From the NCBI RefSeq assembly GCF_963921235.1, contig NC_086108.1:55120001-55184000 (forward strand): a stretch of DNA of 64,000 nucleotides. Direction: 5' to 3'. The notes beneath the pieces are model-generated. The model was given only the letters and a program-made list of their open reading frames with translations. It was not told the DNA's origin and did not search any database. The position numbers were made by a program, and so were the translations under genes. How positions within the stretch are numbered: position 1 is the stretch's first letter; each line of letters begins with the position of its first letter. Below, one piece after another: positions 16,374 through 25,500 of this stretch. This stretch comes from Mobula hypostoma. Taxonomy: Eukaryota.

Positions 16374-18686
16374 TCTGACAAATCTGTTCGAATTCTTTGA
16401 GAAAATAACAAGCAAGATAGGCAAAGGAGAAAGGGTAGATATCGTGTACTTGGATTTTTCGAGGGCCTTTGATATAGTGCTGTATGTGAGGCTGCTTAAC
16501 AAGATAGAAGCCCATGGTATTACAGGAAAGGTACGTACATGGATGAAGCAGTAGCCAATTGACAGGAGGCAAATAGCGGAAATAAAATGACCTTTTTCCG
16601 GTTGGCTGCCAGTGACTAGTGGTGTTCCTCAGTGCTCGGTGTTGGGACCACTTCTTTTTATGTTGTATGTCAATGATTTGGATGATGGGAATTGATAGCT
16701 TTGTGGTCAAGCTTGTGGATGATACAAAGATAGTTGGAGGCACAGGTCGTGTTAAAGAAGCAGGGAGTCTGCAGAGGGGACTTGAACAGATTAGGAGAAT
16801 GGGCAAAGAATGGTAAATAGAAAACAGTTTTAGGAAGTCATGCACCTTGGTAGAAGGAATAAATGCCTAGAGTATCTTCTAATTGGGGGAAAATTCAAAA
16901 ATCCAAGGAGCAAAAGGACATGGTAGTCCTGTGCAGGGTATTCTGAAGGTTAATTTGCAGGTTGAGTCTATGGTGAAGAAAATGCAATGTTACCATTCAT
17001 TTAGGAGGTCTAGAATATAAAATCAAAGATGTAATGCTGAAGCTTTGGAAGGCATTAGTGAGGCCCCACTTGGAGTACTGTGAGCAGTTTTAGACCCCTT
17101 ATTTGAGAAAGGACATGCTGACACTGGAGAAGATTCAGAGAAGGTTCACAAGAAAGATTCCGGGAATGAAAGGCTTATTGCCTTCTTCTTCTTCTTCATG
17201 TGCCTTGCACGTTACACGCTTGGGCGATCATAGCACTCCATATCGAACGATCCCTCGCAGCGTCAATGATATCTCGCACACTTAGATCTCTTAGTTCTTA
17301 CATAATGTCCATATATTTTCTTCTTTGCCTTCCTCTTCCGCGTTTCCCAGACATAAGGCTTTGTAATGTAAGGCATTCTATTTCTCCCTTTCTGATGACA
17401 TGGCCCAGGAGTTTAAGTTTTCTCTCATTTAATGTTCTCATTAAAGATCTTTTTATATGGGCATGTTGGAGTACTGTCTCATTAGTTACCCTATCTCTAT
17501 ATGATGTTTTCAGCATTCTTCTAAGAAACCACATTTCTGTTGCTTCTAAGTTCCTTTGAAGTTCTGGTGTTCTAGTCCATGTTTTGGAAGCATACAGCAA
17601 AATTGACCAGCTGTAACATTTTAGTAGCCTTGTTGTCATAGAAATGTGTTTGTTGGTAAAAATGGGTTTCATTTTTTGGAAGCTGGTTTTGGCAATGGCA
17701 ATTCTTCTTTTTATTTCTACTTTACTTCTAGCATCTTGTGATATGAAAATACCAAGGTAATTAAAGCTGATCTTTTGTTCAGTCTCTTGGTTACTGATGC
17801 ACAATTGGCAGTTGGGAGTATCCTGCTGTTTTGATATTACCCTACATTTGGTTTTTTTTTACAGTTGATGGTTAGACCAAAATCTGCACTTGTTTGTATT
17901 ACTTTGTCTAGGAGGATTTATATGTCTTCTGCAGCACTTGCTATTAGGGTGGTATTGTCTGCATATCTTATATTGTTAATGTTAACACCTCCAATTTTTA
18001 TTCCATCTAGGTGTTTTATTTCTCTGAGAATCATTTCACTATAGATATTAAATAATTCTGGTGAGGCAATGCATCCTTGTCTAACTCCTTACTGAATTTT
18101 AGTCCAACTGCTTATATTATCATCAATTTTTACCGCCGCCGTTTGATTCCAATATAAATTTTGAAGCAGTTGTTGGTCCCTTCCATCAATGTTTAGTTTA
18201 GCGAGAATTTGAAATAATTTCCTGAAATTTAGTCGGGACCCAGCCACCCCATACACCCCAGGCTTATTGTATAAGGAGCAATTGTTGGCTCTGGGCCTTT
18301 ACTCACTGGAATTTAGAAGAATGAGGGGGTTACCTCATTGAAACCTATTGAATGTTGAAAGCCCTTGATAGAGTGGATGTGGAGGGAATGGGTCCTATGT
18401 TATGAGAGTCTAGGACCAGCAGGCACAGCCTCAGAATAGAGGGACATCCATTTAGCACAGAAATCAGGAGGAATTTCTTCAGCCAGAGAGTGGTGAACCT
18501 GTGGAATTTGTTGCCACAGGCAGCTGTGGAGACCAGGCCATTGAGTGTATTTAAGGTGGAGGTTCTTGATTAGTCAGGGCATGAAAAGTTACAGGGAGAA
18601 GGCAGGAGAATGGGGTTGAGGGGGAATTGGAGCAGACTTGAAGGACCAGATGGCCTAATTCTGCTTCTATGGTTTCTGGTCTTATG
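16374..18686 (+). mobile_element. CR1 LINE RT and 3' end, interrupted by an RTE
   Basis: YLDF, GVPQ, VDDTKI and LEKIQRRFTR motifs. Continues after 18269 to the tail GGTTTCTGGTCTTATG. Confidence 0.88.
17181..18259 (-). mobile_element. RTE-clade LINE 3' fragment with a (GAA)n tail and 10-bp TSD
   Basis: ORF 17298-17804 (FNYLG, EIKRRIAIAK, ATEMWFLRRML, GKRGRGR). TSD AGGCTTATTG at 17171-17180 and 18260-18269. Confidence 0.92.
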
Positions 18687-19599: not shown

Positions 19600-20315
19600 A
19601 TCCCCAGTCATATGATACAGCATTATCATCCAAAATCAAAATGGTACATAAACACACATTGGCTAATAGCATCCTGCTATCTGTATTAACCCAAGCAACT
19701 GTCTAGCTAGAGGTTTCAGGTGTCAGGGAGCAAGAAGTGTGTAAAGTTACCATACTAGAGTGTAGGTTCTTGGGAAACTTTCAATTCTGAAGGTAAATAA
19801 GACCATAAGACCACAAGATATAGGAGCAGCAGTAGGCCATTCAGCCATCGAGTCTGCTTCTCCATTCAATCATGGGCTGATCCAATTCTTGCAGTCATCC
19901 CCACTCCCCTGCATTCTCCCCCTATCCTTTGATGCCCTGGCTAATCAAGAACCTATCTATCTCTGCCTTAAATGCACCCAATGACTTGGCCTCCACAGTC
20001 GCCCGTGGCAACAAATTCCACAGATTTACCACCCTCTGACTAAAGTAATTTCTCCACATCTCTATTCTAAATAGTCATCCTTCAATCCTGAAGTCATGCC
20101 CTCTTGTCCTAGAATCCCCTACCATGGGAAATAACTTTGCCATATCTAATCTGTTCAGGCCTTTTAACATTTGGAATGTTTCCATGCGATCCCCCCTCAT
20201 TCTCCTGAACTCCAGGGAATATAGCCCAAGAGCTACCAGACGTTCCTCATACAGTAACCCTTTCATTCCTGGAATCATTCTTGTGAATCTTCTTTGAACC
20301 CTCTCCAATGGCAGT

Positions 20316-20872
20316 CAGTCAGTCAGTGGGTGCCGTCCCGAATCTGGGGTTGGCAGCTATACACCTCCATCTTCTTTGATCTTACGACAGCACCGAGTAC
20401 AGCCTCTCCTCCAGTTTGTTCTCGCTGGCCGCCTTGGCACTGCCCGCTGTCACCCCCGCCAAACTCGAGCTCGAGGCCGTATCGGCCTCCAGCCGCAGCC
20501 GCTTCTTCGAGCTCAGCCCTCCCTTAGGCGGAGGCCTTGGGCAGGTCCAGGCACACGGTGCAGCGCCCAAGTTCATCATGTCTCTTCTAACTAAGTGCAT
20601 AGCATACGATTCATAGATACGCAGTGAGGCTTTAAACTCTTCCACAGAAGATGGCTGTTGGCTCACAAGGAGCTCATCCGCCCTTTATCAAGTCTTGTTT
20701 TTTATTTAGTCCTTCTGGGTGTCCTCACACCCTCCTCACCAGACTAAGTCTGGTGGGGGAGCCGGCCCAAGTCCCCGACCACTCGACCATGGCCCCCGAC
20801 CAAGCACTGGGCACCCGCCCCCCGCCGAGTCTCTCTGAGCACTCGGCGCCCGACCGAAAACCATGGTCGAGC
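20316..20872 (-). mobile_element. Non-autonomous RTE-derived retroposon (structured 5' region plus RTE 3' end, (ACTG)n tail)
   Basis: TSD AATGGCAGT at 20307-20315 and 20888-20896. (CAGT)4 at 20312-20327. The 3' part reads like an RTE ORF end (RDMMNL..DQRRWRCIAANP) and is split by a gene fragment. A 24-bp hairpin lies at the 5' end. Confidence 0.75.
20387..20564 (-). pseudogene. CYHR1: Circularly permuted 178-bp fragment of CYHR1/ZFTRAF1 (N-terminal region into the start of the RING-like zinc finger)
   Basis: Minus 20564-20529 encodes (C)[11 protein letters not shown]. Minus 20531-20387 encodes PPKGGLSSKKRLRLEAD...[12 protein letters not shown]. Vertebrate CYHR1, as I recall it, reads ...PPKKRLR...[26 protein letters not shown]. 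Confidence 0.88.
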
Positions 20873-21419
20873 ATATATCCTTTCTGAAATGGCAGTATAT
20901 CCTTTCTAAAATAAGACAAAATGAAACAAGAAGCCCAAAACTGCACACGATACTCAAGTGTCATCTCAGGAGTACCTATAGGGTCTCAACATCACATCCC
21001 TGCTCTTATAGTCTATAGCTCTAGAAATGAATGCCAACATTGCATTCGCCTTCTTCACCACCCACTCAACCTGCAGGTTAACCTGCACAAGGACTCCCAA
21101 GTCCCTTTGCATCTCTGCATTTTGAATTCTCTCCCGATCTAAATAATAGTCTGCCCATTTATTTCTTCCACCAAAAGTGCATGACCATACACTTTCCACC
21201 TGGACCAGACGGTGTACACCCCAGGGTTCTAAAAGAGGCGGCTGAAGAGATTCTGGAGGCATTGCCAACCCTATGTGATCTCTTTCTAACGATTTAATTT
21301 CATTTTTTACCAACACAGCCATGTCACTCCCTCAGCTTTTCTGCCTGTCCTTTGGATTCAATGCATATCCTTGGACATTAACCTCCCATCTATTTAACAA
21401 ATATCATCTATGTTAATAA

Positions 21420-23607: not shown

Positions 23608-25500
23608 AAGACCATAAGGTACAGGAGCAGAATTAGGCCATTTGGTCCATCAAGTCTGCTCCACCATTTCATCATGGCTGATCCAATTTTCCTCTCAGCC
23701 CCAATCTCCTGCATTCCCCCCATATCCCTTAATTCCCCAACCAATCGAGAATCTCCCTGGCTAAAAAAAGTTCTTCCTCATCTCCACTCTAAAAGGATGC
23801 CCCTCTATTCTGAGTCTGTGTCCTATTGTCTTAGACTCTGCCACCATAGGAAACATTCTCCCCACATCCAGTCTATCAAGGCCTTTCACCATTCAATAGA
23901 TTTCAATGCGGTCACCCCTTATTCTTCTGAATTCTCATGTTTTCAGGGCCAGAGCCATTAAACGCTCTTCATATGACAACCCACTCAATCCTGGAACCAT
24001 TTTCGTGAACCTCCTTTGAACACTCTCCAGTTTCAGCACACCCTTTCTAAGATAAGGGACCCAAAACTGTTCACAATACTCTGAGTGAGGCCTCACTAAT
24101 GCCTTCTAAAGTTTCAATATTACATCCTTACTTTTATATCCTAGTCCTCTTGAAACGAATGCTAACATTGCATTTGCCTTCCTCACTACTGACTCATTCT
24201 GCAAATTAATCTTTAGGGAATGCTGCACAAGGATTCCCAAGCCCCTTTCTGTCTCAGTTTTTTGTATTTTCTCTCCACTGAGAAAATAGTCAGCCCTTTC
24301 ATTTCTTTAACCAAAGTGCATGAACATACATTTCCCGACACTGTGTTCTATTTGCCAATTCTTCACCCATTCTCCTAATCTAAGTCCTTCTACAGCTTCT
24401 CTTCTTCCTCAAAACTACCTGCCCCTCCACCCATGTTGATATTGTCTGCAAACTTTGTAACAAACCCATCAATTCCATCATCCAAATCATTGACATATAA
24501 TGACAACAGAGACACATGTGGAACACCACTAGTTATCGATAGCCGACTGGAAAAGGCTTGCTTTATTCCCACTCTTTGCCTCCTGCCAATCAGCCACTGT
24601 TTTATCCATGCTAGAATCTTTCCTGTAATACCATGGCTTTGAAGCTTGTTAAGCAGCCTCATGTGTGGCACCTTGTCAAAGGCCTTCTGAAAATCCAAGT
24701 ACACAGCATCAAATGGTTCTCCTTTGTCTAACCTGTTTGTTATTTCTTCAAAGAATTCCAACAGATTTGTCAGGCAAGATTTGCCCTTAAGGAAATAATG
24801 CTGACTGCAGCCTATTTTATCATGTGCCTCCAGTACCCTGAGACCTCATCCTTAATACTGACTCCAACATCTTCCCAGCCACTGATGTCAGACTAACTAT
24901 AGTTTACTTTCTTCTGCCTCTCTCCCTTCTTGAAGAGTGGAGTGGTATTTGCAATTTTCCAGTGTTCTGGAACCATTCCAGAATCTAGGATTCTTCAAAG
25001 ATGATTACTAATGCCTCCATGAGGAGTATGACACTTGACATGTATACGAATGATGTAAGATATAAAGTCAATTCAATTCAATGACACTTACGTCATTCCC
25101 GCCAATCTGCAACAGTGCTGTAAGTTCATCTACCTTGTTCCGCACACTGCGTGTATTCAGATACAACACATTCAGTTCTGTATACCCCCTTTTCAGTTTT
25201 GTACACCTTTTACATTGCAACTCACCCAGTTGACTGCAACTTTGCTGCATCAACAGCCTCTCCTCTCTACATGTTGCTGCTGTTCGTAAACCAGCTGCCT
25301 CATCTTCAGCACTATTATCTGCCTTTCCTTTGATACTTCTTGTATTTAAATATAGGCAGCTCAGGACACTAGTTGCACCATGCTAAATCTATTGATTCCT
25401 TACTTTGTCTGAGGTCTTGACAATATCTGCCTCAACAACCTCTCCACCAACTGTCCCACAACCCTCATCTAAATCCCACCGTGTAGCATTAACAATACTC
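23608..25500 (-). mobile_element. CR1 LINE, decayed
   Basis: ORF 24390-24761 (YLDFQKAFDKVPH, GVPH, FADN). EN start (LYLNTRSVRNKVDEL) at about 25068-25253. Confidence 0.88.

Follow-up and report, generated by a model that had tools for sequence, protein, structure and literature searches.

A 64,000-nt stretch of the Mobula hypostoma genome (contig NC_086108.1, positions 55,120,001 to 55,184,000 of the forward strand; hereafter the window) contains, at 20387-20564 on the minus strand, a 178-nt piece of exon 1 of the gene ZFTRAF1/CYHR1 in which two halves have been swapped. This piece is an internal module of a larger repeat. The segment 20312-20872 (minus strand) is one worn, 5'-truncated repeat copy lying inside an older long interspersed nuclear element (LINE) fragment, and it is almost certainly an ordinary dead copy of a lineage-specific, CpG-rich, non-autonomous retroposon of ~570 bp, which resembles a short interspersed nuclear element (SINE) and is mobilised by an RTE-like LINE via a shared 76-nt tail. 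As judged by sequence comparison, the swap arose once, in the founder of the family and not at the window position, given that the same junction between the two halves was recovered 772 times and with the same flanks genome-wide. The chances are slightly better than even that the founder was assembled by a LINE reverse transcriptase jumping between RNA templates, and the best explanation, with identity and mechanism taken jointly, is regarded as reasonably probable.

The two halves of the module are as follows.

Block A, 20525..20564, minus strand: 40 nt belonging to the 3' portion of ZFTRAF1 exon 1 (consensus 329-368), which in the parent gene lies directly downstream of block B.
Block B, 20387..20524, minus strand: 138 nt belonging to the central part of ZFTRAF1 exon 1 (consensus 369-506), which in the parent gene lies directly upstream of block A.

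Consensus positions refer to a 582-nt family consensus built from the 30 copies most similar to the window copy (the window copy itself and 29 others), and the genome searched was the same 3.48-Gb assembly from which the window was taken. On the minus strand, block A (20564..20525) reads GCTGCACC...CCGCCTA and block B (20524..20387) reads AGGGAGGG...GTGCTGT, and the full series in the window is ...gatgaacttgggc / GCTGCACC...CCTCCGCCTA / AGGGAGGG...CTCGGTGCTGT / cgtaagatc..., the junctions of body with block A, of block A with block B and of block B with the tail all being blunt. In the gene, block B encodes EGPSSKKR... and block A an 11-residue stretch; in the window, the 11-residue stretch of block A is read in frame 3 and block B, giving ...SSKKRLRLEAD..., in frame 1. 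When the 582-nt consensus was compared by blastn with the parent locus, termed L052, consensus 369-506 matched L052 1640-1503 (138 nt, 98.6%, E 4e-67) and consensus 329-368 matched L052 1502-1463 (40 nt, 97.5%, E 6e-15). These two high-scoring segment pairs (HSPs) abut in both the consensus and L052, in swapped order and with neither gap nor overlap. The rotated consensus module is identical to the parent at 175/178 positions, ungapped, and the module of the window copy at 165/178. At module positions 45, 110 and 175 the parent has T, G and T and the repeat A, A and C; two of these three differences alter the amino acid, and there the parental state is that of the orthologues. All three are best read as changes on the repeat side.

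The internal junction is CCTA/AGG at 20525/20524, and the source interval is flanked in the parent by ...GAGCTGG/AGGAAG at its start and by ...GTCTA/CCAG/gt at its end. The source segment (L052 1640-1463) contains exon sequence only, and 4 nt separate its end from the exon-1 donor CAG/gt. Neither the two ends of this segment nor the observed junction showed microhomology, no bases being shared in the parent sequence, and no target duplication was found around the 178-nt module alone. An initial annotation of the window had described the fragment as a circularly permuted piece of CYHR1, and much of this description stands: the fragment does derive from exon 1 of CYHR1/ZFTRAF1, as the consensus match to L052 indicates, the outer coordinates 20387-20564 are exact, and the swapped, abutting HSPs are those of a cyclic permutation with one opening point. 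Other details required correction. The internal junction had been set at 20529-20531, 4 nt short of the true end of block A; the CCG held to be shared by both segment ends is not there, the parent reading ...GAGCTGG before block B; and the residues PPK, taken to be part of the ZFTRAF1 protein, are the end of block A read in the frame of block B, the orthologues having LEEGPSSKK. The expectation that BLASTN would return a single CYHR1 locus with two abutting HSPs in swapped order was borne out for the one colinear parent locus, but the stretch itself is not unique, as the 772 junction matches attest.

The parent locus was located with a query consisting of the last 22 bases of block B followed by two letters defined as not the repeat's base (a negative-filter pattern). 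This colinear junction has one match genome-wide, G000:C5:228091044-228091067 (control 0; 3.48 Gb), which is L052. On its minus strand, L052 carries an ATG-initiated 109-codon exon ending in CAG/gt, the 109-aa translation of which matched 76 proteins at E<=0.001. ZFTRAF1/CYHR1 or CYR1A/B accounts for 59/59 function-named matches, with a further 6 bearing uninformative names and 11 unnamed, and the best matches are to chondrichthyan ZFTRAF1 (78% identity, E 1.4e-39; next 72-77%). By sequence homology, L052 is exon 1 of ZFTRAF1/CYHR1. With a named orthologue as query, four coding exons were found in order on one contig and strand, at 86-98% identity and over ~158 kb, and the gene lies at G000:C5:227933278-228091328, with L052 as exon 1 and a first intron of ~91 kb. 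In an alignment with four orthologues, L052 tracks them up to ...PKASVYQ and then departs into intron. The exon-2 match has one in-frame TAA inside the matched stretch, probably due to the match running into intron sequence. No second ZFTRAF1-like locus was found in the genome, every other protein-level match (98 of the 102 in total) covering only residues ~43-113 within repeat copies, nor was any tandem duplication or paralogue of the parent locus found there. The parent ZFTRAF1 is a normal, colinear, single-copy gene, and the possibility allowed for in the initial annotation, that the parent already has the rotated order or a tandem duplication, does not apply.

The name of the gene was obtained only after the parent exon served as query. 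A 'longer'-only homologue search with the protein of the window fragment gave 0/152 candidates at E<=0.001, and a Pfam-guided hunt for ZFTRAF1 in the genome gave 3 matches to PF21362 and 10 to PF02176 with ZFTRAF1 not among them, the latter 10 presumably being TRAF-family zinc fingers. The 100-aa open frame of the window copy produced one match, to an IQ-repeat protein (E 2e-4), which was judged spurious.

The 178 nt and ~380 nt of flank together form one interspersed repeat, with an identity genome-wide of about 89-93%. A 351-nt query centred on the fragment gave 40 scored matches at 91-93% over the full query from 1,307 first-look candidates, a 581-nt query gave 41 matches from 2,173, and the aligned copies define a discrete unit of ~570 bp. 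Block A followed by block B, with the same three junctions, is present in 30/30 aligned copies, and the 27-mer spanning the A/B junction, with up to 3 mismatches, has 772 matches genome-wide (378 forward, 394 reverse; control 0). The 18 nt at the end of the body occur 324 times as an exact word, and in the four occurrences that are without the usual block A start the module is nonetheless present, altered by minor deletions or substitutions. A body end joined directly to the tail, as in an empty, module-less form, was seen in 0/324 cases (exact 18-mers, one genome), and variants of the A/B junction with a 6-10-nt spacer gave 0 matches (exact flanks only). Within such exact-word screens of one genome, every member has the module, and since no module-less member was found, the capture appears to be at least as old as the family itself.

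Copies differ from the consensus by 5.5% on average; for non-CpG sites the figure is 2.7%, for CpG sites 17%. A flanking direct repeat of at least 7 nt is present in 18/30 copies and of at least 9 nt in 12/30, as counted without a shuffled control; the copies end 3' in (ACTG)n, and their 5' truncation points vary. Short, high-copy and interspersed, with 3' LINE homology, target site duplications (TSDs) and variable 5' truncation, the family shows the characters by which LINE-dependent retroposons are recognized. The window copy diverges from the consensus by 7.0%. Its CpGs had been reported as intact and the event as recent, and both statements hold in part: 14 of the 20 CpGs that the 178-nt module brought from the exon-1 CpG island are kept, but ~20% of CpG-site bases are changed across the copy, and recency is relative, the capture predating the spread of hundreds of copies that are ~5.5% off the consensus. 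Two other copies, L063 (C12:196974260, plus strand) and L064 (C12:197075164, minus strand), lie ~100 kb apart in opposite orientation, are identical over the ~300 bases printed, share a deletion in block A and both show 88.408% identity over 578 nt to the consensus, an indication that a segmental duplication in inverted orientation took place recently on that contig.

The window copy and its insertion site comprise, in addition to blocks A and B, the following features.

5' TSD copy actgccatt, 20888..20896, minus strand: in the host LINE fragment, read directly and found by the TSD script.
Filler of 15 nt, 20873..20887, minus strand: between TSD and repeat, resembling the target just upstream.
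Repeat front and body, 20565..20872, minus strand: 5'-truncated head, core and unique body, approximately consensus 22-328, from the alignment with 29 copies, the consensus and the mosaic map.
LINE-derived tail, 20312..20386, minus strand: last ~75 nt of an RTE-like LINE, with the end of its open reading frame (ORF), the stop codon and (ACTG)n.
3' TSD copy actgccatt, 20307..20315, minus strand: read directly and found by the TSD script.
Downstream half of the host LINE ORF2 C-terminal fragment, 20200..20306, minus strand: frame restored once the insert is removed.

The first 4 bases of the 9-mer actgccatt overlap the last ACTG of the tail, leaving a true TSD of 5-9 bp, and the TSD encloses the whole insert of ~580 bp and not the 178 nt. 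Once the insert and one TSD copy are taken away, the host LINE frame is unbroken (...FRKDILPL/ERVQRRFTRMIPGMKGLLYEERL...). The unit that integrated at the window was the whole repeat, by retroposition, given that the TSD lies at the outer ends of the insert and that the host LINE frame is continuous after its removal. The insert is without approximately the first 20 nt of the consensus, and the 15-nt filler tcagaaaggatatat, which adjoins the host sequence ttagaaaggatatact, is not in the family consensus.

A mosaic map, made by comparison of the consensus with 260 kb of sampled genome, indicates that the family is a five-part mosaic, in which head and core are common to another SINE-like family and are followed by 84 nt of body, 40 + 138 nt of ZFTRAF1 and a LINE tail.

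Head, consensus 1-104, from the mosaic map.
Core, consensus 105-244: 76-81% common with a second repeat family.
Unique body, consensus 245-328 (84 nt): found only in the ZFTRAF1-bearing family.
Blocks A and B, consensus 329-368 and 369-506: ZFTRAF1 exon 1.
Tail, consensus 507-582: LINE 3' end.

With T disallowed as the base just before it, the first part of the tail has 110 matches genome-wide, and 12/12 examined matches are LINE 3' ends, with 90-97% identity to consensus 507-582. In each of the 12, LINE homology sets in at consensus 507, immediately beyond the last base of block B. The stop codon of the ORF of this partner LINE (...EGKRERGRQRTTWYDNVRQWTGLSYAEARKRAQDRRRW...) falls within the (ACTG)n repeat. 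RVT_1 is matched (E 1.3e-28) by an open stretch of 366 aa in this LINE, and its closest relatives are proteins of 913-1,077 aa with apurinic endonuclease (APE) and reverse transcriptase (RT) domains on contigs of 3.1-4.0 kb. LINEs of the RTE clade are compact (~3.3 kb), with one APE+RT ORF of ~1000 aa, a very short 3' untranslated region and short tandem repeats at the end, and the C-terminal motif of the partner LINE is one that we take to resemble theirs. No single-copy source of the 84-nt body was found, 6/6 pattern matches being family copies. A stop-to-stop frame of 122 codons (consensus 214-582) passes through body, module and tail, of which 100 codons are open in the window (20382-20684, minus strand), and the final 25 codons of the LINE ORF continue the frame of block B. 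This frame appears to decay neutrally and not to be under coding selection, given that divergence is flat across codon positions (2.9/2.3/2.2%), that synonymous and non-synonymous changes number 62:163 and that the frame is open in only 15/30 copies.

The second SINE-like family is represented by L054-L062 (for example L054:1501-1965) and by L029:1097-1500, and is ~465 bp in length; its copies are ~95% alike, gave 1,961 first-look candidates and end in ...GGATGGATAGCCAG(AG)n. A hairpin-like head and a core of ~140 nt are common to this family and the ZFTRAF1-bearing one, but body and tail differ between the two, and at L029 a second-family copy is cut by an inserted ZFTRAF1-bearing repeat. The head of the ZFTRAF1-bearing family contains an 11-nt inverted repeat, CTCGACCATGG / CCGTGGTCGAG, at consensus 23-33 and 102-112 (window ~20870-20790), the stem of which encloses a very GC-rich loop of 68 nt; the same stem has a 20-nt loop in the second family, and TTTT lies just inside the stem. 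Two independent copies, L079:1503 and L080:1503, are 5'-truncated exactly at consensus 245, the boundary of core and body, and this agreement may be fortuitous or may reflect the end of an RNA or the edge of a module. The host LINE ORF2 C-terminal fragment, presumably CR1/L2-like, occupies 20897-21331 and 20200-20306 on the minus strand (...KKANAMLAFISRAIDYKSRDVML... / ...ERVQRRFTRMIPGMKGLLYEERLVALGLYSLEFRR). Two further retroelement ORF fragments lie on the minus strand of the window: one at 17298-17858 ends in ...GKRGRGRQRRKYMDIM and resembles the C-terminus of the RTE-like partner LINE, and the other at 24390-24845 has reverse-transcriptase-like motifs (...YLDFQKAFDKVPH...).

The founder could have been built in a single run of template jumps. 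A LINE reverse transcriptase would have copied the final 76 nt of LINE RNA, jumped onto ZFTRAF1 exon-1 RNA at ...GTGCTGT and copied block B toward the 5' end of that RNA. The enzyme would next have landed 4 nt short of the exon's 3' terminus and, from there, have copied block A back exactly to the first landing point; a last jump would have led onto SINE-front RNA, copied to its 5' end. The resulting chimera, with a transcribable front and a LINE-recognised tail, may then have become a master copy and spread. The window copy itself almost certainly entered the older LINE fragment by target-primed reverse transcription and later decayed by ~7%. An RNA template is favoured because the source is intron-free and ends 4 nt from the exon-1 splice donor, an endpoint to which an estimated ~2-3% chance is given if endpoints are random, and template jumping is favoured because the module sits exactly at the LINE-tail boundary. 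Template jumping is the accepted route to LINE-tailed repeats and LINE chimeras (PMC5499810; 10.1101/2025.02.02.635956), and long first introns are the reported context of first-exon/LINE-1 chimeras (10.1101/2025.02.02.635956).

The exact return to the entry point could have come about by one round on a small circular exon-1 RNA, by a forward jump or loop-back on a linear exon-1 RNA that was halted at its own RNA:cDNA duplex, or by end-to-end jumps over two fragments from a single cut. These three scenarios account equally well for the exact abutment; a circle is possible and is not required, and a true circle takes roughly a third of the likelihood assigned to RNA template jumping. When the parental segment was folded as RNA, the two termini of the 178 nt did not pair with each other (z = -1.75, with 12/200 shuffles folding as well), a modelling result that neither supports a shortcut through a structured RNA with close ends nor counts as evidence against it.

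In the version with a circle, a small ZFTRAF1 exon-1 circular RNA (circRNA), in which the donor was joined to an AG in the same exon, upstream of the ~91-kb intron, would have been taken up by the RTE reverse transcriptase; the enzyme would have circled once, halted at the start of its own cDNA and jumped off, and the module would be the resulting cDNA. This version is possible but unlikely. The initial annotation had argued against a back-spliced circRNA on the grounds that the junction is not at splice sites, and it is right that the junction is not a canonical back-splice, but the argument is weakened by the source ending 4 nt from the donor. If the circRNA version is true, the family would preserve in the germline the copying of a circRNA by a LINE enzyme, and it would be the first case in which such a capture gave rise to a repeat family with copies numbering in the hundreds to thousands. 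A bolder addition to this version is that the captured CpG-island first-exon piece may aid transcription of the chimera, which would explain its retention in all members.

Several points weigh against the account of a SINE-like, RTE-mobilised retroposon assembled by template jumping, with or without a circle. The A/B junction is not a canonical back-splice, being 4 nt short of the donor and with block B starting 1 nt before the nearest AG/G, and a back-splice fit would need one substitution and a loss of 2 nt, the two extra bases having been found in no copy. A DNA-level origin is possible, for example by a severely truncated LINE inserting beside a pre-existing rotated fragment or by extrachromosomal circular DNA (eccDNA) pasted into the founder locus. 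The designation of the partner LINE as RTE-like is provisional and comes from its compact architecture and the C-terminal motif, not from phylogeny, and the inspection of LINE-tail matches covered only 12 of the 110. The consensus sample is 30 window-like copies from one genome, with older subfamilies and other species lying outside it. For a SINE with a Pol III head, ARAGORN gave 0 tRNA-like matches in 4 loci, and Rfam searches at E<=1 with the window copy and three full-length loci gave only sub-threshold chance matches (sR32 at 16-18 bits, mir-999 at 23 bits). The head also has a TTTT run at consensus 34-37, and such a run would stop Pol III. The element is therefore called SINE-like, with 'SINE' used loosely, because a Pol III-type head was not found; it is not a proven Pol III SINE.

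Among explanations other than RNA template jumping, the one that survives best is an eccDNA or microDNA of ~178 bp from the ZFTRAF1 exon-1 CpG island, opened once, ligated into a DNA break in the master copy and then amplified. The exact order, AB to BA, with a single opening point is as expected of it, and the size of 178 bp and the GC/CpG-rich 5'-exon source fit small eccDNA, microDNAs being 100-400 bp in size, GC-rich and derived from 5' regions of genes; to this extent the microDNA proposed by the initial annotation fits. The AB-to-BA order is also the published signature of germline eccDNA insertions (10.64898/2026.09.03.749254). However, the module directly adjoins the first base of the LINE tail in the family and in 12/12 LINE comparisons, a coincidence of about 1 in 580 for a random break, and the absence of a module-less member among the 324 body ends speaks against insertion into an existing element. 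Microhomology is absent at the source ends and at the insertion junctions. The segment also breaks off 4 nt short of the exon-intron border and takes in neither intron nor promoter DNA, whereas a DNA circle would be indifferent to that border. An eccDNA origin is accordingly given a low probability.

A DNA rearrangement in which no circle took part is more doubtful again. It would start from a ZFTRAF1 exon-1 retrocopy or duplicate, shuffled by replication template switching or by misjoined fragments and later flanked by the SINE front and a truncated LINE. Misligation of two adjoining fragments of one break would give the same AB-to-BA order and three blunt junctions, but the colinear junction is unique in the genome, the search for other ZFTRAF1-like loci having led into repeat copies only, and more independent events would be needed than in a single reverse-transcription run with template jumps. 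Integration of a small circle (microDNA or circRNA cDNA) at the window position as a one-off 178-bp fossil, as the initial annotation had it, explains the exact rotation only and has practically nothing left in its favour, as the same module, three junctions and flanks occur hundreds of times on many contigs and the 178 nt belong to the interior of a ~570-bp repeat whose own target duplication encloses the whole ~580-bp insert. An assembly or chimeric-read artefact is just as hard to credit, with 772 junction matches on both strands across the assembly and with mutations and flanks particular to each copy.

The components of this case are already described: rotated retrocopies, AB-to-BA eccDNA insertions, RTE-tailed chimeric repeats and LINE/first-exon chimeras. 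LINE-1 is known to form U6/L1 chimeras of a comparable kind, and SVA_F1, which carries MAST2 exon 1, is a first-exon chimera able to propagate itself. Circular RNA-derived pseudogenes (Dong et al. 2016, Cell Res, PMC4897178) are likewise retro-copied host blocks in rotated order, without poly(A), associated with retrotransposons and present in many copies from one source (33+ for circRFWD2), and their authors caution that non-colinear junctions can arise without circles. Unlike those pseudogenes, which have an exon-exon back-splice of whole exons, the rotation described here is intra-exonic, lies 4 nt off the donor and not at the exon start, and forms an internal module of a LINE-tailed repeat instead of a free pseudogene. 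Germline eccDNA insertions (10.64898/2026.09.03.749254) share the cyclic shift and the full coverage of a short source interval; they are single events, 80/82 on the source chromosome and 28% with terminal microhomology of at least 5 bp, whereas the present module shows no microhomology, adjoins a LINE tail and has reached many contigs by retroposition.

Platypus snoRTEs (Schmitz et al. 2008, as cited in PMC5499810) also combine a cellular RNA with an RTE 3' tail and show SINE-like high-copy amplification, and in the general modular SINE model, modules are exchanged by recombination or template switching (PMC5499810). In contrast to snoRTEs, the cellular component here is a protein-coding first-exon fragment that is rotated and lies between a SINE front and the tail. 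LINE-1/host first-exon chimeras (10.1101/2025.02.02.635956) similarly depend on LINE machinery, join sense first-exon sequence to a retroelement and involve long first introns, but are colinear, placed at the 5' end of the element and often joined at splice sites, whereas the module here is internal, rotated, linked to another LINE clade and 4 nt off the splice site. What is distinct here is a rotation that is intra-exonic, very small and base-exact, lies between a SINE front and a LINE tail and has been amplified to at least several hundred copies. No published description of a ZFTRAF1/CYHR1-bearing repeat family was found in a literature search, and Repbase or Dfam may already hold the family.

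Host copies in AB-to-BA order are currently read as footprints of circles, in both circRNA pseudogenes and eccDNA insertions. The present family shows that a retroposon can turn a single footprint of this kind into hundreds, and counts of circle integration would therefore be badly inflated unless repeats are collapsed first. The 98% match of the module to its parent, set against 78% identity of the exon protein to the nearest named orthologue, leads to the prediction that the taxonomic distribution of the family is narrow. The family is a clean and datable example of a new LINE-dependent family, which appears to have been put together from a LINE tail, RNA of a host first exon and a pre-existing SINE front, with three junctions that are base-exact, and the exact return to the entry point constrains models of template jumping for RTE-type reverse transcriptases.

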